Shown piece after piece: positions 2,021 through 61,143 of a stretch of 64,000 bases of DNA. The position numbers and the translations under genes are program-made. The stretch lies in NCBI GenBank assembly GCA_000004985.1, contig GG738849.1; one strand, 5' to 3'. The stretch's first letter is position 1, and each line of letters opens with the position of its first letter. Under the pieces are notes generated by a model, which saw nothing but the letters and a program-made list of their open reading frames with translations, was not told the origin of the DNA and ran no database searches. The stretch is from Naegleria gruberi. Taxonomy: Eukaryota.

Positions 2021-4099
2021 ATATCCCAAATCATTATAATCGAGTTTTTATCCTAATAAATCTAACTTAAAAATAATTAAAAAGTCTTACACATCATTTT
2101 GAAATTGGGATAGTTCAATAGCTATTTTTCAAACTGTATCTGAATAAAATTAAATTTTCTCTTCATAGCTCTTCATTTTCTTCGATTAGTTGTGGAGTTT
2201 CCTTGCGTGATTTTCACACCAGTCCACATTTTAAAATCCTTTGTAAACCGGGTTTTGTTTTGGTGGGAAAAGGGTTCGTGCAAAAGCTATTCCCGAATTG
2301 TCCGTTTAAGCAGCAATAAAGAAAAGCTAATAATCACAATTCCAACAATCAAACAGGTTTCAAAAAAACAAATCATTCCATGGTAAATACCTTTCAGAAC
2401 TTTCACCTAATTGCAAACATGTTCCACCTCGAAAGTTTATTTCAACTGTTTCACACTTCACATAAGATGTGGACAATAACTGGTTGTGGTCTTGTTGGCC
2501 TAATCATTCACAGGATATTAAACAAGTTTTACAAACTCCTGACATTACCAAAACCAAGTTTTGCCAAGAAGGATTACGATGTCGTCATTGTTGGTGGTGG
2601 TATTGGTGGTTGTGCATTGGGAAGTGCATTGTCTAAGGCTGGAAAGAATGTGTTGGTTCTTGAAAGAGATATGAGTGAGCCAGATCGTATCATTGGTGAA
2701 TTGCTTCAACCTGGTGGTGTTCAACATTTGAAAGATTTGGGACTTGGACATTGTCTTGAAGGAATTGATGCTGCCAGAGTATTTGGTTATCAAGTTTTCT
2801 ATGGTGATGATGAACAGGTCAATTTGCCTTATCCAATCGTTGAGGGAGGAAGAGCAGAAGGTAGATCATTCCACTATGGAAGATTCATTATGAATTTGAG
2901 AAGAGCTTGTGAACAGGATGGGTAAGTATCAAATAGTTTTCATATCAACTTAATGAAACCGAATGTTAAAGGGCTACATTATTGGAAAGAACTGTTGTTT
3001 CATTGATTGAAAAGACACCAGGTCTGATTGAAGGTGTTCAGTATAAGAAAAACAACAACGATTCAACTGTTGATGTCACTTGCAAACTTGTGATTATTTG
3101 CAATGGAGCTGGTAGTTCATTCACTAGACAAGTTCGTTCTGATAGATTTGGAAATAAGCCATTGGTTGTTTCTCAATTCATTGGTTTGGAACTTGCTGAC
3201 AGTGCTGAAAAATTACCAAAACCAAATCACGGAAACGTTTTTGTTTTACCAACTGGACCTGTTTGCTTTACCCAAACAGTTCTTTAACAGTGAGATGTTT
3301 AGTCGACTTTCCACATCCTGATTCGAATAAGTTACCAAAGAGAGGTGAAGAAATGACCAAATACTTGCTTGAATATATCATGCCACACTTGCCAGAAAAT
3401 TTACATGAATCTTTCAAGGCCGAAGTTGATGCTAGCAGAATTAAGGTTGTTCAAAATCGTGAAATGCCAGGTGAAACACCAGAATCACTCACCAAGAAGG
3501 GAGTTGTTCTGATTGGTGATGCCATGAATTGCAGACATCCAATCACTGGTGGTGGTATGACTGTCACTTTCTCCGATTGTAAGGAATTAGTTAAGGCCAT
3601 TATTCAAATTAAGGATTTGAACTGTGTTTCTGAAGTTGATGAAGCCATTCAATCATTCTATTCAAATAGGAAAAAAGTTGCATCCACAATTAATATTCTT
3701 GCAAATGCTTTGTATTCGATTCTTGCTCCTTCATTAACAGTAGTAAGAAATGATCAAGAGAAAACAATACACAAAGATGACACAGTTTCCTTATTGCGTA
3801 GAGCTGTTTTTAGGTACTTACAAAGGGGAAGCTTTTGTCAAACTGGTCCATTGTCATTATTGAGTGGTTTGTGGCATTCACCATATGGCCTTTTATTTCA
3901 TTTCTTTTCTGTTGCCTTACTGGGTTCAGTTGATCTCATTAAGGAAGGAGGTATTTTGGGTATATTTGGAAGTTTATATAAGAGTTTGAAGATGATAACT
4001 GGTGCTACTACTCTCATTGCTCCACTAATTGCTGAGGAACGTTTATTATCTTGTGTGTTTCCTCGATTCTTTTGGAAGAGAACTGCACCGATCAAGTAG
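420..4099 (+). repeat. Tandem direct duplication of the squalene epoxidase gene unit (about 1.9 kb per unit, including the intron)
   Basis: Long stretches of identical nucleotides, e.g. ttaccaaaaccaagttttgccaagaaggattacgatgt at about 425 and about 2545, and the shared intron donor context caagacgggtaagtatca / caggatgggtaagtatca. Confidence 0.8.
2380..4099 (+). CDS. Squalene monooxygenase paralog, copy 2. Same intron position (exons ..2921 and 2972..). A 1-bp frameshift near 3250-3265 splits the reading frame. Possible pseudogene or sequencing error.
   Basis: Near-identical protein blocks to copy 1: LTLPKPSFAKKDYDVVIVGGGIGGC... and CRHPITGGGMTVTFSDCKELVKA. Frame switches between ORFs 2982..3287 and 3263..4099: copy 1 reads CCTTGCTTGCTTTACC, copy 2 reads CCTGTTTGCTTTACC. 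The N-terminal region before the TM helix is unrelated to copy 1. Confidence 0.6.
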
Positions 4100-4506
4100 C
4101 TGTAATGGTCTTATCTGCTCACTCGTGTGCCTCAACAATTATGAATAAATCTGAAATACTTACATTATTTGTTGTTCTAGAGAATCTCTTGTCCTTTGGA
4201 AAGGTCTTTATTGTTATGGTATTAGTGCTTGGGGGGTGGAAACTGTAGAACTCATTCTACACAGCATTCATGAGTTAACTGATGAATGGAATCAACGTCT
4301 ATATTATTATATAACTGTAGTTTATCTAATACCAATCTCCTTAGTTGTTGACAATGGATTTCATTGATTATTCTAAAGACGCATATTCAATACCGGGAAT
4401 TGAAATATGAGCGAAACTTTCCCGCCATTTCGAAAACCCGGACCGGATTCTATTTCCCTTAATTTAACAAGACAACATTTCCAAACAATTTATAACAAAA
4501 AACAAA

Positions 4507-12236: not shown

Positions 12237-12442
12237 TTTTTTAGAAATTTAATTTATTACAAAAAAAATGTAAAGTATTGAACAACAAAAAACATTTTTG
12301 TAAAGTAGTTGAGTATTACAGATTTTTATGGATGAGTAATTGATAAATAATAATCAATTAATTTTTAAGTTTCATGAAGGAAGGAATAGGTTTTTAACTA
12401 TGTATTTAAGGAGAGTGAAGTACTAAGATAAATTAATGTGCT

Positions 12443-12513
12443 CGTCTCGTGGTGTAATGGTAGCATAGTGGACTTTGAATCCATTGACGGAGGTTCGATT
12501 CCTCCCGAGACGG
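12443..12513 (+). tRNA. tRNA-Gln (anticodon UUG)
   Basis: Cloverleaf: acceptor CGTCTCG/CGAGACG, D-arm GTGTAATGGTAGCA, anticodon stem GTGGA/TCCAT with loop CTTTGAA, T-arm GGAGG-TTCGATT-CCTCC. Confidence 0.85.
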
Positions 12514-13007
12514 TAAACGTGGCGAGCCCCTGAAATTTTGTTGAACTATGCTTTAGATATTTCAAATAATGAAAATGATTGTATATTTTTTAATTATTGA
12601 GGTCCTTTCATATGTTTGTGTATTTTATTGGTATACATTTGCTTATTGACAGCTTTAAAGGCAATTTCTAAATCATTTCTCATATTAAATTGTTTTAAAG
12701 ATTATGACAATTTATTTTCAATTGCTTATAAGGCCATTTCGTTTGTAATAAAGGATTGAAAATAGGTTTTTTCACCTGAAAAAATTGAAGTCCATTTCTA
12801 AAAGCAGTTTCAAATATTAAGCCCCTTACCACTTTATTATTGTACCTAAATTATCCATTATAATTTATCAATTAATTCTCATTCCAAGAGTTTCTTTGAT
12901 GTAAATAACACTATTTACAAAATCCATCTAATGGATTAAATTTAGCAAAACTAACCAGCCCATCCGCTACCCTTTTTAAACAAAATTTCAGAGGCTCGCC
13001 ACGTTTA

Positions 13008-13078
13008 CCGTCTCGGGAGGAATCGAACCTCCGTCAATGGATTCAAAGTCCACTATGCTACCATTACACCACGAGACG
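13008..13078 (-). tRNA. tRNA-Gln (anticodon UUG), second copy in inverted orientation
   Basis: Exact reverse complement of the 12443..12513 gene. Confidence 0.85.
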
Positions 13079-13299
13079 AGCACATTAATTATGTTAGAAC
13101 CCCAAACTACTTAAATACCCTTCAATTAAGGAAAGATCACCCAAGTCAGCGACTACCATTCTCCACAACCAATCCTCGCCTCCTTAAATAATATGTAAGA
13201 AAAGAATGTAACAATTGACTAGAACGCAAGTTGTAGAAAGTTGGCGGGAAATTTAAAAAAAAATTGCTAAACCGTTAATCTCTATTGTCAATCAGAAAA

Positions 13300-52574: not shown

Positions 52575-54449
52575 ATGTTTAGTTTTGAAGAGGAAACAAC
52601 AACAACAACATCGGTACCAGTTGCAAATGCTACTATTGTTGATGATGATGATCAAAAACAAGAAGGAAATGAAGAAGAATTTACTATACAGGGTGATCAA
52701 CAAGTAAAACAACAACAACAACCAATTAAACAACAATATGTTCCGGTTGAGACTATTGATATTAATTATGAAAAGGTTAAAGATTGGCTTGTAAATAGAA
52801 ACTTTTTACCTTCCGATTATGTAAAACAATTAAAACAAATTAGAGGTTATATTAAACATGCTTTTAAAGAATTGAAGGATAAACATGAAGAAGTGAAAAG
52901 CAAGGAATCAGAAAAACCAGTTACAGAATTATTAGAGAAAATTAATCAACTTTCTCAAGAATCACAAGATGAATTGGCAGTGATTGATTACTTTATAACG
53001 AAGGAAATTGTTCAAGTTTTGGAGAAGGCTGATTCATCGGAAGGAAGTGGTTATTTGTTTGGTCTTGTTGGTGGATCTAAGAGACTTAAATTGTGGAAAC
53101 ATGTTTTACAAAGTTATGAAGCAAACAATCTCCATTTGGCCGAGATTTCAGGATATATTATCCAGAATGTAAAATATGAAATTCCTTCCATGTCAAGCTC
53201 ACTTTTATCATTAAGAAATCAATTGGAAAGTATTGACAGAAAGGAAGACGATTGGAAGAGATCCCTTGAAATAGCCAAGAGAGAATTTACCGAGTCTTGT
53301 GAAAAACTTTCTATTAATAGGGAAAAAATTGAAAGCATGATTCAATTTGCTTCGAGTGGTTCTAGTGTTGGTGTTGATATTGAGGATGAAATTAAGAGTG
53401 CTGTATCAGATCTTCCACAATTTTATGAAAATATTGTAGTGTCATGTAAGGATGCCAAGTTCAAGAAGGCAGTTGATTATTATGAAGATTTTACATCATT
53501 TTTCAATAAGAACAAGGTTAGGGAAGATTTAACTTGTCTCAAGTTTGTCCTTTCCAATTTGGAAAAGTCGACACTTTCCATGTATGATTGGAAATTGTTC
53601 AACAATCAATCATTACCTTCTGTGGATGAAGAAAAAGTACAATCCTACATTCAAAAATTAAAAGATGAAGAAAGCAAGAAGGCCAACAAATCAAATGAAC
53701 CACAAATTGACTTTGGTGATTTTGAATTTTCAACTGAGGGCAATGTAGAAATTAATTGGGATACTGGTGTGGAAGAGAATAAGGAAATTGAAATCAAATT
53801 TGATGATGTTGCTCAAGAGAAAGAACTCGAGATTGATTTTGGAGATTTTAGTACTGATGATGTGGGTGGTTTTTCAATGGATTCTGTCGATATTTCCAGC
53901 AATACCAATGACGAAGACAGTATCAAATTGGTTGCAGAGTTGAGAATGAAATCCTTCCTTGATGATGAAGATGTCAGAGCTCTCTTCTCCAACAATCTCT
54001 TCCAATTATATGCCTTTGTACAACAACGAGTTATTGAGGTAACAAAGAATTCATCACTCGATAGTGAAATTTTCAGTTCTGCTCCAAACTCTATCAAATC
54101 CATCACCAAAGAAGAAATTCAAAACCTTATGCATGCAACTGGTAATGTAGTCACTACTCTCAATAACCATCGTTTCAAACAACTCATTCTCATCAAGACC
54201 TCGAAGAAGTTTGTGGAACGTCTCGTTCAATCCCTCACACAAAAGCTTGAAATTATGAGCAAGACAAAGACCAACTTGGAAGGTGTAGACTCCCAACGTT
54301 CCTCTCTCAATAATTCCATCAAGAACCAACAACCAACTGTTCTGAAAATCAAAAAGCAAACCAAAGACTATCAAGACTTTATTCAAAAGAATCTTTCTGA
54401 AAAGCTTGGAAAGAGAGTTGTTATTTTCGGTGAAATAAACAAGATTTAA
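52575..54449 (+). CDS. CDK5 regulatory subunit-associated protein 3 (CDK5RAP3/LZAP) homolog, UFMylation pathway component
   Basis: YEKVKDWLVNRNFLPSDY and EISGYIIQNVKYEIPSMSSSLLSLRNQLE resemble the conserved CDK5RAP3 N-terminal blocks. Confidence 0.55.
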   Translation: MFSFEEETTTTTSVPVANATIVDDDDQKQEGNEEEFTIQGDQQVKQQQQPIKQQYVPVETIDINYEKVKDWLVNRNFLPSDYVKQLKQIRGYIKHAFKELKDKHEEVKSKESEKPVTELLEKINQLSQESQDELAVIDYFITKEIVQVLEKADSSEGSGYLFGLVGGSKRLKLWKHVLQSYEANNLHLAEISGYIIQNVKYEIPSMSSSLLSLRNQLESIDRKEDDWKRSLEIAKREFTESCEKLSINREKIESMIQFASSGSSVGVDIEDEIKSAVSDLPQFYENIVVSCKDAKFKKAVDYYEDFTSFFNKNKVREDLTCLKFVLSNLEKSTLSMYDWKLFNNQSLPSVDEEKVQSYIQKLKDEESKKANKSNEPQIDFGDFEFSTEGNVEINWDTGVEENKEIEIKFDDVAQEKELEIDFGDFSTDDVGGFSMDSVDISSNTNDEDSIKLVAELRMKSFLDDEDVRALFSNNLFQLYAFVQQRVIEVTKNSSLDSEIFSSAPNSIKSITKEEIQNLMHATGNVVTTLNNHRFKQLILIKTSKKFVERLVQSLTQKLEIMSKTKTNLEGVDSQRSSLNNSIKNQQPTVLKIKKQTKDYQDFIQKNLSEKLGKRVVIFGEINKI

Positions 54450-54595
54450 TTTATTAAAATATATGCAATAATTGATTAGCCATTCCTATTAAGAGAATGC
54501 AAACTGGAACTTTCAGCAACTTACAAATTTTTTTAAAAAGGAAAATGAAAGTGATATTATGAAAAAAGAATATTGGAGATGAGTGCCGGGAATTG

Positions 54596-54682
54596 AATGG
54601 CTACCGGGAATGAAATTTCCTAATTTAGGAACCCGGGTCGCCAGAGTGACAGTCTGGAATGCTACCACTATACCACACCCGA
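54596..54682 (-). pseudogene. tRNA-Asp(GUC)-like degenerate element
   Basis: The minus strand reads GGTATAGTGGTAGCATTCCAGACTGTCACTCTGGCGACCCGGGTTC. This has an intact D-arm and anticodon arm. The T-stem CCGGG/CCCGG is interrupted by a palindromic insert of about 16-33 nt (CTAAATTAGGAAATTT). There is no complementary acceptor stem. Confidence 0.35.
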
Positions 54683-54805
54683 TTACATTCATATAGAAAT
54701 GATTCCTTAATTCGCCTTAGTATAATGTGCAATAATTAAATCATTTCGATCTATTAGATGAAGAGAGGAATGATCAAGAATCAAACATAATAAAACTAGT
54801 TATTA

Positions 54806-55729
54806 TTATTGGAATGGATTGTAGGTCATTTCATTAATTTTCCAAAATCTAAGAATGCCCTTATCTGAAATGGATTGAATAACTTGATTACTTGGAGTGT
54901 GAAGTACAAATTTACCTTCCAATTCCTTATTTTCATTGAAGGGGAAGAGGGAATGGAGAACTTGCCAAACCCCACTCGATTGTCTAATTCCAAAGCTTGA
55001 CATATACTTTCCAATAATTTCTTCAACTTGCACTCTTGAATAGTTTTGAGATTTTATCAAATCCAACAAGGAATCAGCCTGTGGCAATGGGAATTCTCTC
55101 TTATCAACCTGATAAATGAAATAATCTCCATTTACAACCATGAAACCCTTTGCAAACCTATTGACCACATTATTCTCAACTTCTCTTTCCAATTCCAGTG
55201 AAATATAAGAAGGATTAACATTTGATACGAATGCAGGTTGCCAAATCTCTCTATAATCATCACCATTAATTCCCTCTTCAACCATGAGAGGTTTTCTTGA
55301 CTCTGTATCCACATGTCCAATATCATAACTGCCTGTAAATGGTTGGAAGTCAATTTTACGATCCCATTGACATATCCATGCACTCTGATTGGCATGTGCA
55401 AAGCCAGCAAATGATTTCTGATTGGCCAATTGAAGCAACTCATCCCAAGAATATTGAGACAATGATGATTTTTGGTTTAAATAATTAGGTCTAGTAATTG
55501 GTATTCTAATATCACAATACATTGAATTGGTTTGAATATTGAATACAATGGTTGTGTTATCCACAATGTGACCGATTGGCTCTTCAATCCACAACCTTTT
55601 CCAAACATTTACCATTTGCTGGGGAACTGTGAATGTTGGAGAGCCGAATGTCATCGTTATCATGCATGCAAGGATGATGAAGATGATACTGCGCAATGAT
55701 ATTGGCAAGGTGATTTTATTGTTTGACAT
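54806..55729 (-). CDS. Secreted or membrane-anchored hypothetical protein with an N-terminal signal sequence
   Basis: MSNNKITLPISLRSIIFIILACMITMTFG. Confidence 0.4.
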   Translation of the reverse strand: MSNNKITLPISLRSIIFIILACMITMTFGSPTFTVPQQMVNVWKRLWIEEPIGHIVDNTTIVFNIQTNSMYCDIRIPITRPNYLNQKSSLSQYSWDELLQLANQKSFAGFAHANQSAWICQWDRKIDFQPFTGSYDIGHVDTESRKPLMVEEGINGDDYREIWQPAFVSNVNPSYISLELEREVENNVVNRFAKGFMVVNGDYFIYQVDKREFPLPQADSLLDLIKSQNYSRVQVEEIIGKYMSSFGIRQSSGVWQVLHSLFPFNENKELEGKFVLHTPSNQVIQSISDKGILRFWKINEMTYNPFQ

Positions 55730-55910
55730 TTTTTTTGTGTAGTTTCCTCTTGTAAAAGGAGTAATCACGGAGTAAGAAGATTCTCCTCATTCCCGCCAAA
55801 ATCATCTACCTTTATTTTGGATTCTTTTGGTTAAAGGTTATGAAATAGGATTAGATTTCGTTTGTATTATTCCAATATTCCACAACAAAAAATGTCTAAA
55901 AATCTATTTA

Positions 55911-58900
55911 TTAAACAAAACAACAACAGAATAATCTGCAAGCATCTTGATGCTCTGGAGAGTTCTTCACTCTGCCCAAACACCCTCCAAGAATATCCCA
56001 ACTCTTATATCCATCTGTATAGTCATGTTCACTGGCAAAGAATGGATTAATTTCCAAAGATTTAACTTGATCAACATATTGCCAAACAACAACCTTGTAT
56101 AAAACTCTGAGATATCTATTTTGATCTCTAGAGGACTTGTCTTCCTTGCCATCATCAAGAACAGCTCCAACCTTGTTGACACGCTTAGTGTAAACCATAA
56201 AGTTGGCAACCCAAGAGAATTTGACAGGAACGAAAGGAAGTAGGCACCATCTAGACGATTTAGTGCTCCATCTTTCAAATTTGAAGAATGGGAAGACGAG
56301 GAATTTCAAAAGTTTGTGACCTTCCTTAAGAGATTTGGAATATCTGATGAAACTGACTTGACGAACAAACAGCCAGAACAAACTCCACTTCTTTTCCTTA
56401 ACTCTTGTATCGCTTGCATAGAAATAGAGGAAGAGTATAAAACTAGTGATTTTAGAGTCCTTATTATCAGACGCGCCACCTGCAAGAATATGTCCATCAC
56501 CAAAAACTTGTCTTCCAAAATGGAACATAGAAACAAACTTGTGGAATAACCAGAGAAGTGACAAGTAGAATGTTGATGTGCCTCCTTCCTTAGAAGAATG
56601 GAAAAGTATGAGTGGGAAAATATAGAAAAGTCTGCTAAAATCTTCACGGCATCTTGAGAGTTTGAATCTTAATGTGGACAATAATGGATGGAATAACCAA
56701 GCAAATGAGTGAGTCAAAGTTGTCTTGGATGATGCAAATTCCTTTGTGAAGGAGTATAACATGAAAATATAAAAGCACAAATCTTGAGTAGATTTGGTCT
56801 TATTTCCCACATTCGAGATGAATGTTACAATATTCCAATATCTCACGAGTGCTAGCTTGTAATAGAACAAGAAGAAAATAGACCAATCTATTCTTTTGGT
56901 TAAATTTGAGCTGTGATCCTTTGTTTGATGAATGAAAAGTGGGAAAATGTAGAACATTGTATCACAATAGGTTCTGGTTCTATCTTTACCAAAATAAATG
57001 ATAGCCAAATTTTTGTGGAAGAAATAGAAGATTGAAATGTCAAACTTCTTTCCAGCTTCTCCTGAAGAATCATTGGTATATCTCACAAGTGGGAATGAAT
57101 AAAATCCAGAATCTGTATGACCGTTAGCAAATAACTTCCAATAGTGGGCCATGGCAATTCTCTTGTAGAATAACCATAACATGAATAAGTGAGTTTTTGT
57201 CTCGAGTGTGACGGATTCCCTTTCTCTTTCAAGGAAGAATATTGGGAACAGATAGGTAAGAATCTTCTTCCTATTTCCCTCAACAACACATCTCCAAAAG
57301 AAAACTGAAACATATTTTTCTACCAGGAATAGAACTGAGAGGAATTTGAACGCTCTAGTAGTCGTCTTAACTGCTCTATAGAAAACCAATGGATAGGCAA
57401 ACCAACCTTGTTCGTTCTCATACTTCCAAACACAGAAAAAGGTAACATATTTGTAAAAGAGCCAGAACAATGAGAATTCTCTCCTTTCAATATTTCCAGT
57501 CATGTGCTTGTAAAAGTATAAACTCATTACGAATTGTCTGTGATTCTTGTTAGAGTAATCATCTGTATTAGTACTCATGGAAACAGAAGGTTGTGTACAA
57601 AGTACGTTATTGTGGAAGAGAGCAAGCCACTTGGTGAACATCCAAACCAAACAGAAAGTCTTTCTCAAACTTGTTCCACTCACGTTGGTATACTTGAGAA
57701 TGACGAGGAAAATGTAGAACCCTTGCTTTCTGTTACTAGTTGTGGTTAAACTCCATGCACGTATCAAGGACAGGTTCTTTGTGAAAAACCAAAATCCGTA
57801 GTGAACATCTTCTTGGACAGTCTTGCTTGGTTGGGTGAGATCGTACTTGATATCTCTATAGTAAAGTGGTGATATGTGAAGTCTCTGCTCTCCAATTTTT
57901 CTTTGATCAATTGGTTTGTAAGTGGAGTATTCATACTCAACAATCCAGTTAATAATAGAGACTCCCCATGTTTTTGGAGCTGGCAACCATAACCATTTCC
58001 AAACTTTGTTTGAATCATTGCATGAATAATAATAAATTGGGAATAGGAAGGAGCTAGTATCACTCTTAGTAATTTGGTTGCTTTCTTTAGAAGTGTTGAC
58101 AACCTTATCCATGGTGAAAAGAGCTGCAGTCTTGTGTAATATCCAAAGCAAAGAAAAGCTTCTTTCAAATACTTCCTCCAAAGTTGTTGTCTTAGTTTGC
58201 TTATCAAAGTAAAATAGAGGCAAAACATAACAGCACAAATAATTGTAGGCATCAGTGGAATATTGTTGGTTCCAATATATAAAGCTCCAACCTTGTCTGA
58301 AAATCCATAGGAATGAGAGAGTAAAATCATTACCTACAACCTCACCATGACCTGTCCACCAATTTTTGACAGTACTGAAGAATAATAGGAACACATACAT
58401 GCTAGATCTATGAGAGTTTGGAGTTATTAATCTGGTATATCTAAATAAGGCAACCTTTTCACTGATAAAATAGATTAGCGAGAATGACAAATATTGACCA
58501 TTACGTAAGGCATTAACAACTTGGTTATTTCTATCAATCTTGATATAAAAAAGAGGAAGTATGTACATTGACTTGATCATCTCTCTATAATCTAAAATAA
58601 TCCTGCCCAATGATAAATCTTTCAAGAGCCAGAATAATGCCACAGTTATTAGTGGAGCATATTGCTTGGTTTCTGAGCTGGTTAAATCAGGAGTTTCCAA
58701 AGCTCTTTTTTCAAAATAAAAGAAGGGGAAGGCAAACAACCTCCAACGCCTCATCATAGAAGTACCCTCAGCTGATCCAACATACTTGCTATCATATTGT
58801 ATCAAACTGTATCTAGTTCTTGGAATATAGAAAAGCTTGAAGTAATAATTTTTGTCCTGGGAATCGATTGATAAATCGAAAATAAAATGCAAGTGGGCCG

Positions 58901-60815
58901 ATTTCTTGCGTCTATCGTTTCTAATGAAAAAGAATGGGAAAATAAAAGTGTACTTCCAATATCTATTGTAAACATAGAAAGGGAATATAGTACTCATGGT
59001 AACTTTTCCATCTTCAACACTATGATAGAAATATGGTGGAAGGAAAAAGAAGGATCCCATTCTGATACTTTCATTCTTTGAAACAAATGAGTAGTAACAG
59101 ACAAAGAGCCAAATGGTTACTTCGTCATAAATCTTTCTATGACCAAAGAGTCCACCAACAAATAACCTAGTATGTGATAAAACCTCATCTGTTTGCTTGT
59201 AACTTGTATAGGTAATGTACAAAAAGAAAGGATACGTTACCAATTTGTGAGATTGCTTTTTGTGTAATTTAGAATATATGATAAGTATGGAGAGATAGTT
59301 CTTCTCCTCTGATCTTCTAGCATAAAGAAGGACAAAAAGTAAGAATGTTTTCTCCTTTCCTATATCTGAATAATAGAAAATTGGGAAGAGCCACACTCTC
59401 ATCTTTTCAATACTCTTCTGATTTCTGTAATAGAATAAATAAAATAGATTCACCATAATATCCTCTCTGCCATCAATATTCTCCTTAAAGAAATAGAAGA
59501 GTAAAGGTATGAGGAATATTTTAGTAGTATCATCTGTTGTCTTTCCATCTCTGATACCAATATCCTTTCGTACCCAATAAAATGGGAGGAAGACATTATT
59601 GTAATCTGTTGAGGTGGTACCTTCGGTTTCATATTTTGACTTATGGAACCAGAATAAAAGTAAGGTGGTGAAAAAGGTTTTTGAGGTTTTGGATGTAGAA
59701 TAATTGTAAATAGTTTTTTTGAAGTAAGTAAAAAGCAAAGGAATAAATAAATGCCAATCATGATCGTGATATTTAGAATAATAGAAGAATGGGAAGAGGT
59801 AGATCCTTCGTTTCATAAGTTGTTTTTCATATTTTGCATGCATGAAAAATGGTGTGATGAAAGTATAAACCTTCTCTGAATTTTTAAAGTAGAAAAAGAG
59901 TAGGAATATCCAAAAGATGTGATGTCCTTTGCTTTCTCCCTTATCTAGAGAAATTTTGATGTGTAATAATCCCCAAATACCAAAGGTAAACTTGGCAGGT
60001 TCAGATGGACTACAATTTTTGGAAGATACGTGTTTCCAATAAAAGAAAAGAACAAATCCTCTGGACCCTCCTTTTTTCAAAAATCTAATCCAACAAATTG
60101 GAAGGAATCTAAGTGAATGTTTTTCTGGCGATCTTTCATATTTCAAAAAAGGCCATGGCATGTGAAGTGTAAAATTACCTTCACCTTTTCTAACTCTGAA
60201 TAGAGGATATAAGATTGACCATTCCTGATATTTTCCTGGTCTTAACTGAGTTCCGAAGAAGGGCCACATTTGTCTGATTCTAAACTTGCCATTTTCAAAT
60301 AAGAAATAGAATGGCAATACTATATTCAAATGTGTTTCTTTTGTTTTGTACTTCCAAAAGAATGGAAATAGTGTCTGGAATGACATGTTATTGTCATCTG
60401 TTCTTTTCGATTCATTAGAGAAATACATAAAAGGGAGAATGGCCATGAACTTGGTTTCTTGAGCTGCATGAAAAGTTTTACGTAAAAAGTACAAGAGACC
60501 TGCCAATATCATGGTTGTTTGTGAAGTCTTACTCTTTCTATGAAAAGTAAGGAATGGAAGAAGAAATAATGTTACAGCATCAATAGAAACCTTATACAAG
60601 ATACTATAAAACAAGAACATGATAGTGAGTGCATTTGTACTGCTATCACTTTCATACTTGAATAGGAATGGACGAATACTAAACTTTTTCCTCGTTCCAT
60701 ACCTTTCATATCTAATGAGAGGCCACATAATATCAGTCTCCGATCTATCCACATTTGAGGTGTGGGAAACAAAGGGCCAAGCTTTGATTTTAAAATCTCT
60801 GTGTCTGCTGGCCAT
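55911..60815 (-). CDS. Giant intronless repeat protein (1634 aa) made of about 70 degenerate aromatic repeats of about 16-24 aa
   Basis: Uninterrupted 4.9-kb ORF in AT-rich DNA. Recurring cores LPFYW, FLIPLLFYFFK, WLFPIFYY, FIFPFFFIRN, LFWLFYKYV, FYIFPLF. One long hydrophobic segment sits near the N-terminus. No match to a family I can name. Confidence 0.6.
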   Translation of the reverse strand: MASRHRDFKIKAWPFVSHTSNVDRSETDIMWPLIRYERYGTRKKFSIRPFLFKYESDSSTNALTIMFLFYSILYKVSIDAVTLFLLPFLTFHRKSKTSQTTMILAGLLYFLRKTFHAAQETKFMAILPFMYFSNESKRTDDNNMSFQTLFPFFWKYKTKETHLNIVLPFYFLFENGKFRIRQMWPFFGTQLRPGKYQEWSILYPLFRVRKGEGNFTLHMPWPFLKYERSPEKHSLRFLPICWIRFLKKGGSRGFVLFFYWKHVSSKNCSPSEPAKFTFGIWGLLHIKISLDKGESKGHHIFWIFLLFFYFKNSEKVYTFITPFFMHAKYEKQLMKRRIYLFPFFYYSKYHDHDWHLFIPLLFTYFKKTIYNYSTSKTSKTFFTTLLLFWFHKSKYETEGTTSTDYNNVFLPFYWVRKDIGIRDGKTTDDTTKIFLIPLLFYFFKENIDGREDIMVNLFYLFYYRNQKSIEKMRVWLFPIFYYSDIGKEKTFLLFVLLYARRSEEKNYLSILIIYSKLHKKQSHKLVTYPFFLYITYTSYKQTDEVLSHTRLFVGGLFGHRKIYDEVTIWLFVCYYSFVSKNESIRMGSFFFLPPYFYHSVEDGKVTMSTIFPFYVYNRYWKYTFIFPFFFIRNDRRKKSAHLHFIFDLSIDSQDKNYYFKLFYIPRTRYSLIQYDSKYVGSAEGTSMMRRWRLFAFPFFYFEKRALETPDLTSSETKQYAPLITVALFWLLKDLSLGRIILDYREMIKSMYILPLFYIKIDRNNQVVNALRNGQYLSFSLIYFISEKVALFRYTRLITPNSHRSSMYVFLLFFSTVKNWWTGHGEVVGNDFTLSFLWIFRQGWSFIYWNQQYSTDAYNYLCCYVLPLFYFDKQTKTTTLEEVFERSFSLLWILHKTAALFTMDKVVNTSKESNQITKSDTSSFLFPIYYYSCNDSNKVWKWLWLPAPKTWGVSIINWIVEYEYSTYKPIDQRKIGEQRLHISPLYYRDIKYDLTQPSKTVQEDVHYGFWFFTKNLSLIRAWSLTTTSNRKQGFYIFLVILKYTNVSGTSLRKTFCLVWMFTKWLALFHNNVLCTQPSVSMSTNTDDYSNKNHRQFVMSLYFYKHMTGNIERREFSLFWLFYKYVTFFCVWKYENEQGWFAYPLVFYRAVKTTTRAFKFLSVLFLVEKYVSVFFWRCVVEGNRKKILTYLFPIFFLERERESVTLETKTHLFMLWLFYKRIAMAHYWKLFANGHTDSGFYSFPLVRYTNDSSGEAGKKFDISIFYFFHKNLAIIYFGKDRTRTYCDTMFYIFPLFIHQTKDHSSNLTKRIDWSIFFLFYYKLALVRYWNIVTFISNVGNKTKSTQDLCFYIFMLYSFTKEFASSKTTLTHSFAWLFHPLLSTLRFKLSRCREDFSRLFYIFPLILFHSSKEGGTSTFYLSLLWLFHKFVSMFHFGRQVFGDGHILAGGASDNKDSKITSFILFLYFYASDTRVKEKKWSLFWLFVRQVSFIRYSKSLKEGHKLLKFLVFPFFKFERWSTKSSRWCLLPFVPVKFSWVANFMVYTKRVNKVGAVLDDGKEDKSSRDQNRYLRVLYKVVVWQYVDQVKSLEINPFFASEHDYTDGYKSWDILGGCLGRVKNSPEHQDACRLFCCCFV

Positions 60816-61143
60816 TTTCAAAGATCAACAATAATAGCAACCTAGCACAATATCAATTATTAGAATAGTAATTTATGATAACGTTGATGATGGTGATGAC
60901 TATATAAACTTTGGTGTGTTGATATTTAATGAAACACCTATTCCGGGTGATGGTGTTATCGGGTGATGATCTTTGCTATTTTTTTGTTGTTGAAAGTCCA
61001 ACACAAGTTCTTATTTGAGGCGAGCATTTTTCTGCAGTGAACTTGGAAGTAACTTGAATGATGTATTGCTCACCAACAGCTTTTTCAAGAATAAAATAAG
61101 AAATTGACAAGATATGGGAAGAGAATTGGAAAGAACATGTAGT

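Follow-up and report, generated by a model that had tools for sequence, protein, structure and literature searches.

The minus strand of the window (the whole stretch of Naegleria gruberi nuclear DNA analysed here, 64,000 nucleotides) carries at 54578-54682 an element derived from tRNA-Asp(GUC), and with a probability of roughly 0.86 we read it as a disabled copy, that is a pseudogene, of a nuclear tRNA-Asp(GUC) gene of N. gruberi. The element is identical to intact tRNA-Asp(GUC) outside two discrete lesions, an insertion in the T loop and a replacement of the last bases at the 3' end. tRNA finders fail to report it, and its loss of function is predicted. Three readings of this DNA had been offered in an earlier note; that of a decayed tRNA gene has held up, and those of a SINE-like element and of a mobile-element excision footprint have found no support, for reasons given with each below.

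The locus and the parts of the element

The element sits in a 356-bp spacer between two convergent genes. The features of the locus are as follows.

52575-54449, plus strand: open reading frame of the CDK5RAP3 family (Pfam E = 5e-125)
54806-55768, minus strand: convergent 320-codon open reading frame on the other side of the spacer
54629-54682, minus strand: 5' part of the tRNA-Asp(GUC) relic, with 54/54 bases as in the intact genes on contigs L010 and L011
54595-54628, minus strand: insertion of 34 nt that splits T loop and B box, CTAAATTAGGAAATTTCATTCCCGGTAGCCATTC; without it ARAGORN calls a tRNA-Asp(gtc)
54617-54631, minus strand: palindrome TTCCTAAATTAGGAA with a 6-bp stem and a 3-nt loop, seen as a self-inverted match and spanning the 5' junction of the insertion
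54597-54614, minus strand: half-site A, TTCATTCCCGGTAGCCAT, inside the insertion, an imperfect copy of half-site B
54579-54596, minus strand: half-site B, TCAATTCCCGGCACTCAT, the original 3' part of the gene by its match to L011 and by the 28.3-bit Rfam alignment
54578-54580, minus strand: ATC in place of G71 A72 G73, compared with L010, L011 and L004-L009, all of which end in CGAG
54562-54567, minus strand: run of six T (T6), 10 nt downstream of the relic and 13 nt after C70

The CDK5RAP3-family open reading frame matches a protein of N. gruberi, encoded on an 850-kb scaffold, at 100% identity, and the next matches are from N. lovaniensis (62%) and Willaertia magna (45%). No tRNA was present at the loci of the CDK5RAP3 orthologues in N. 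lovaniensis, W. magna and the L003 relative (a sequencing-run assembly), and hence the tRNA-Asp copy is lineage-specific. The G+C content is about 33% all along the window. The only tRNA genes that ARAGORN reports in the 64 kb are two for tRNA-Gln. They lie in a 115-nt inverted duplication (12431-12545 and 12976-13090) with arms that are 98% complementary; each arm comprises an intact tRNA-Gln(UUG) gene (68.8 bits) with about 10 nt of 5' flank and about 30 nt of 3' flank, and the two genes converge on a spacer of 430 nt. An open reading frame of 1636 codons at 55911-60821 on the minus strand is rich in aromatic and repeated hydrophobic segments and gave no Pfam match, and N. lovaniensis has a gene of 1803 residues at the corresponding position.

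Read directly from the minus strand, the tRNA-Asp D arm, the GUC anticodon arm and the CCGGG...CCCGG arrangement described in the earlier note are all present. The 5' part of the relic reads TCGGGTG-TG-GTAT-AGTGGTA-GCAT-T-CCAGA-CTGTCAC-TCTGG-CGAC-CCGGG-TTC and then runs on as CTAAATTAGGAAATTTCATTCCCGGTAGCCATTC-AATT-CCCGG-CACTCATC. It thus contains the acceptor 5' strand TCGGGTG, the D arm GTAT-AGTGGTA-GCAT, the anticodon arm CCAGA-CTGTCAC-TCTGG (5-bp stem, with GTC at 54650-54648, the same in the intact genes), the variable region CGAC, the T-stem 5' strand CCGGG at 54636-54632, which is followed by the palindrome, and TTC as the first three bases of the T loop. In the D stem, A12/C23 is a "mismatch" that every intact relative also has, and it does not represent damage. 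The region of the A box is identical to that of the intact genes. The B box is cut by the insertion into GGTTC and AATTCC, as compared with the contiguous GGTTCRANTCC, and the best contiguous candidate for a B box in the relic, CATTCAATTCC, lacks G52 and G53. The T6 run could be a former RNA polymerase III terminator, although it is weak evidence because T runs are common in DNA of 33% G+C; intact relatives have runs of T4-T5 at 4-8 nt downstream.

ARAGORN reported no tRNA in the native relic under any option, including the intron and pseudogene modes. The Rfam tRNA model (RF00005) gave 28.3 bits over model positions 3-68 when aligned with the distal half-site B, and 25.2 bits when the proximal half-site A was used as T-stem 3' strand and acceptor; both scores are below the gathering score of 29 bits. 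The minimum-energy fold is not a cloverleaf: CCGGG pairs with the proximal CCCGG around a hairpin, in which the palindrome is paired. In silico deletion of 32-36 nt (about 34) gave a 71-nt tRNA-Asp(gtc) in ARAGORN, with the mismatches U1-U72 and C2-A71 and a C as discriminator. A valid cloverleaf with alternative boundaries, which the earlier note had named as grounds for giving up its view, was thus absent from the native sequence; one appeared only after the 34-nt deletion, and it was still two acceptor pairs short.

Intact relatives and the acceptor end

Intact relatives were collected in two ways. An exact 29-mer, CCAGACTGTCACTCTGGCGACCCGGGTTC, which begins in the anticodon stem, ends in the T loop and constrains nothing after TTC, was scanned over metagenome contigs. 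Six contigs (L004-L009) contained it identically; the tRNA-Asp gene is complete on five of these and truncated at the 5' end on the sixth. Each of the six has, immediately after TTC, a normal T loop, T stem and acceptor strand TGCTCGA-G, and ARAGORN reported tRNA-Asp(gtc) in all five complete cases. At acceptor positions 6 and 7 these genes read CA, where the window element reads TG. Contigs L010 and L011 were found by antisense translation of the hypothetical intact element and a protein-database search for spurious open reading frames. The frames P0007 and P0010 led to the two contigs, each with one intact tRNA-Asp(gtc) gene, at 542-612 on the minus strand of L011 (57.1 bits in Rfam) and at 3210-3280 on the minus strand of L010 (52.0 bits). 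On L004, L005, L010 and L011, gene callers predict such spurious frames of 37-83 aa antisense to the tRNA-Asp genes; these phantom proteins (e.g., ...LEHRESNPGRQSDSLECYPYTMPD... and ...LECRELNPGRQSDSLECYHYTTPD...) are present in a public protein collection, and here they served to find tRNA genes.

The gene on L011, TCGGGTGTGGTATAGTGGTAGCATTCCAGACTGTCACTCTGGCGACCCGGGTTCAATTCCCGGCACTCGAG, is identical to the relic at 68/68 bases outside the insertion, over tRNA positions 1-70, and differs at 71-73 only; the reference genes here and in the other comparisons are all from metagenome contigs, those of L010 and L011 eukaryotic. The intact tRNA-Asp(GUC) genes on L010 and L011 share with the relic G10-U25, A12/C23, the anticodon arm, the variable region and the T stem, but they are without its 34-nt insertion and have GAG where it has ATC at 71-73. 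The tRNA-Asp resemblance is therefore beyond chance, as judged by the 29-mer in six contigs, by the 54-nt 5' part equal to that of L010 and L011, and by an Rfam E of 0.0038 on the local stretch around the relic. Alignment of the flanks with those at the L010 and L011 loci gave scores at shuffle level, and homology ends at the tRNA borders. Directly upstream of the tRNA-Asp 5' end, ATGTAA is found both in the window (54683-54688) and on L010 (3281-3286), and L011 has ATAGCAA instead; the shared hexamer may be coincidental, or it may be a short promoter element upstream of the gene. A protein search with the Ribosomal_L10-domain protein of L010 gave no relative above about 37% identity. Scans of prokaryote genomes with two patterns gave 0 hits, and a literature search for the relic sequence itself returned 0 papers.

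The 3' end of the gene is represented by half-site B, which comprises the remaining T loop, the T-stem strand CCCGG, the acceptor 3' strand CACTC and then an aberrant AT. Within it, AATTCCCGGCACTC (54594-54581) is identical to L011 at 14/14 positions. Covariation of half-site B with the 5' strand is seen at two pairs: 6-67 is U-A in the window, L010 and L011 but C-G in the L004-type genes, and 7-66 is G-C in the former and A-U in the latter. On the basis of this identity and covariation, half-site B is the original 3' end. Half-site A was tried as the true 3' end, as in one Rfam alignment and with MAFFT, and was rejected on the same two grounds. Also rejected was an alternative acceptor 5' strand, ATGAATG, which lies 10 nt upstream and would form 6/7 pairs with CACTCAT; the intact relatives show TCGGGTG to be the true 5' end.

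With the distal half-site B, 5/7 acceptor pairs form (G3-C70, G4-U69, G5-C68, U6-A67 and G7-C66), and only 1-72 (U/U) and 2-71 (C/A) fail. With the proximal half-site A the number is 4/7. The statement in the earlier note that no 7-bp acceptor pairing exists is hence literally true, but its description of the element as having no acceptor stem went too far. The failed pairs are due to the ATC lesion, which leaves 1-72 and 2-71 unpaired and turns the discriminator G73 into C; the discriminator is G in 8/8 relatives.

The insertion and competing explanations

The insertion is made up of the 15-nt palindrome and an imperfect copy of the 18 nt that follow. Its register can be shifted by up to 3 nt toward the 5' side, because TTC is present at both junctions, and the four equivalent junction registers were enumerated. 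A hairpin had been proposed as the expansion of the T loop; the palindrome is indeed there, but the disruption consists of the whole 34-nt insertion and not of the hairpin alone. The duplication of half-sites was correctly noticed at the outset: A and B are an adjoining head-to-tail direct repeat with 18-nt units and 72% identity. Between A and B there are 4 substitutions and 1 indel over 18-19 nt, compared with 0 changes over 68 nt in the exon-like parts. The probability of such an uneven split of changes between half-site A and the 68 nt is about 0.0014 by a hand-calculated hypergeometric test in which all sites are taken as equally free to mutate. A simple course of duplication followed by neutral decay does not predict this uneven divergence. 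Either copy A was already imperfect when it was made, or gene conversion from intact paralogues, or else selection, has kept the rest unchanged; a functional gene with splicing would show the same pattern. Half-site A also carries the aberrant terminal CAT of half-site B, and the duplication was therefore made after, or together with, the lesion at the 3' end. A search for a local template of the inserted bases (500 bp on either side, both strands) gave a longest match of 9 nt, a length equalled or exceeded in 137/500 shuffles and thus at chance level; a templated origin of the insertion is unsupported.

Elsewhere in the window, an intergenic site at 4386-4404 (minus strand) contains the exact 12-mer TTCAATTCCCGG in a context, ATTTCAATTCCCGGTA, that closely resembles half-site A. 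A T-arm-like string, CCGGGTTTTCGAAAT, begins about 41 nt upstream, and the site is part of a hairpin (CATATTCAAT...ATTGAAATATG). There was no Rfam tRNA signal at this site at E up to 10. The resemblance may be due to chance, or the site may be another T-arm fragment in a much more advanced state of decay.

One explanation of the insertion is that a DNA transposon inserted in the T loop and later excised, with the palindrome left by hairpin resolution and the additional half-site by target-site duplication. This concerns the origin of the pseudogene and is compatible with its status as one. A short palindrome at the junction, beside a tandem repeat of flanking sequence, is what such an event could leave, but the palindrome is located 5' of both repeat copies and not between them. 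The repeat is also too diverged at 72% identity, given 0/68 changes elsewhere, to be a clean target-site duplication, and at 18 nt it is longer than the target-site duplications of cut-and-paste transposon families, which are typically 2-11 bp. Remnants of terminal inverted repeats were not found, and local template matches were no longer than in shuffled controls. We therefore regard an excision footprint, as raised in the earlier note, as very unlikely.

Hardly credible, in our estimation, is a functional tRNA-Asp gene in which the insertion is an ectopic T-loop intron removed without a canonical bulge-helix-bulge and in which the frayed acceptor is tolerated or repaired, for example by 5'-end repair templated on the 3' strand. 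Precise removal of the 34 nt does give a perfect T arm, CCGGG-TTCAATT-CCCGG, and a tRNA recognised by ARAGORN; the exon-like parts match the intact gene at 68/68 bases while the internal repeat of the insert has diverged, and the T6 run lies downstream. The product of that removal, however, keeps the mismatches at 1-72 and 2-71 and has C as discriminator, where every intact relative has G. The case against function draws more strength from this unrepaired acceptor end and wrong discriminator than from the lack of a bulge-helix-bulge. In addition, the insertion is absent from 8/8 related genes (the six 29-mer contigs, L010 and L011), the DNA no longer has a contiguous B box, both tRNA-Gln genes of the window are uninterrupted, and literature searches found no report of ectopic tRNA introns in Heterolobosea.

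The bulge-helix-bulge was defined as a 3-nt bulge, a 4-bp helix and a 3-nt bulge at the exon-intron junctions, and no register of the insertion forms one. Across the four registers that lead to the right product, 0-2/4 pairs are possible in the central helix; the flanking helices have 0-1 bp in three registers, and the fourth has 2-bp outer and inner helices with 2/4 central pairs. A systematic scan over all junction pairs likewise found no bulge-helix-bulge that fits the borders of the insertion. The ectopic tRNA introns of Cyanidioschyzon merolae are processed through such motifs, and most of those in the Guillardia nucleomorph cannot form them (PMC3728597). Since ectopic introns without the motif are thus on record, its lack here weakens the case for an intron rather than eliminating it. 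As in the disrupted tRNA genes of C. merolae and of cryptomonad and chlorarachniophyte nucleomorphs (PMC3728597), the insertion is in the region of the T arm and its exact removal restores that arm. Unlike in those genes, there is no bulge-helix-bulge, homologues lack the insertion, its removal leaves the acceptor end and the discriminator defective, and the host is a heterolobosean whose window tRNAs are otherwise uninterrupted. A spliced product of the locus would end in ...CACUCAUC(CCA), a signature unique to the locus, with a mature length of about 71 nt. If true, the intron would be the first ectopic tRNA intron in a heterolobosean nuclear genome, and an expressed and spliced locus would bear on the evolution of non-canonical tRNA introns in eukaryotes.

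The element could also be taken for one copy of a dispersed tRNA-Asp-derived SINE-like repeat with the expanded T region as family consensus, to which the tRNA-derived head with its intact A-box region, the unusually high number of tDNAs in N. gruberi (924; PMC2888827) and a bracketing 13-nt direct repeat, ATATGCAATAATT / ATGTGCAATAATT (12/13 identical, at 54461-54473 and 54725-54737, starts 264 nt apart), would correspond, but we give this reading, which takes up a suggestion of the earlier note, scarcely any weight: about 0.2 bracketing pairs of this kind would arise by chance in this AT-rich stretch (an estimate), no second copy of the element or of the insertion occurs within the 64 kb, homology to relatives stops at the tRNA borders with flank scores at shuffle level, and the 29-mer metagenome scan gave uninterrupted genes only. 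tRNA-derived SINEs share with the relic a tRNA-like head with an A box; the relic differs from them in that its tRNA homology reaches position 70/73 and it has neither a tRNA-unrelated body nor a tail, whether A-rich or LINE-like; further copies are absent from the window, and the flanks show no homology.

Origin of the lesions and consequences

For the pseudogene, the following course of events is proposed. A normal 71-nt tRNA-Asp gene with the sequence that is intact on L011 would have been the starting point. One lesion would have been the 34-bp insertion in the T loop, in which the palindrome is joined to an imperfect duplicate of the 18 bp that follow, with a 3-bp microhomology (TTC) at the borders of the insertion; the other would have replaced the last two acceptor bases and the discriminator, GAG to ATC. 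The gene copy may have been killed by one complex event or by a few closely spaced ones. As the source of the insertion we infer error-prone break repair or replication slippage, because of the 3-bp microhomology at its bounds, the palindrome and the imperfect copy of adjacent sequence. The lack of point changes over 68 nt, together with two discrete structural lesions, suggests that the pseudogene is probably of recent origin.

The split internal B box, GGTTCAATTCC, should impair TFIIIC binding and transcription by RNA polymerase III. Any transcript of the relic is predicted to lack a 7-nt T loop and G73 and to have 5/7 acceptor pairs. G73 is a major identity element for aspartyl-tRNA synthetase (AspRS), as is known in yeast. 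Like the eukaryotic tRNA pseudogenes placed in the "pseudo" class by tRNAscan-SE, the relic combines tRNA descent with a covariance-model score below threshold and with damage to both the B box and the acceptor stem. Most described tRNA pseudogenes have scattered point substitutions or truncations; the relic, by contrast, has none over 68 nt and two discrete lesions.

Intact tRNA-Asp copies must, we infer, exist elsewhere in the N. gruberi genome, because Asp codons are used throughout the genes of the window and about 924 tDNAs have been reported (PMC2888827). With that number of tDNAs, redundant and decaying tRNA copies are to be expected in this organism. Taken alone, the significance of the relic is small, as it adds one more disabled copy to a large tRNA gene family. 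For annotation, the locus should be entered as a tRNA-Asp pseudogene, neither left blank nor called a gene. For the study of mutation it offers a clean example, a single complex insertion in an otherwise unchanged gene, in which the event can be read without later decay.
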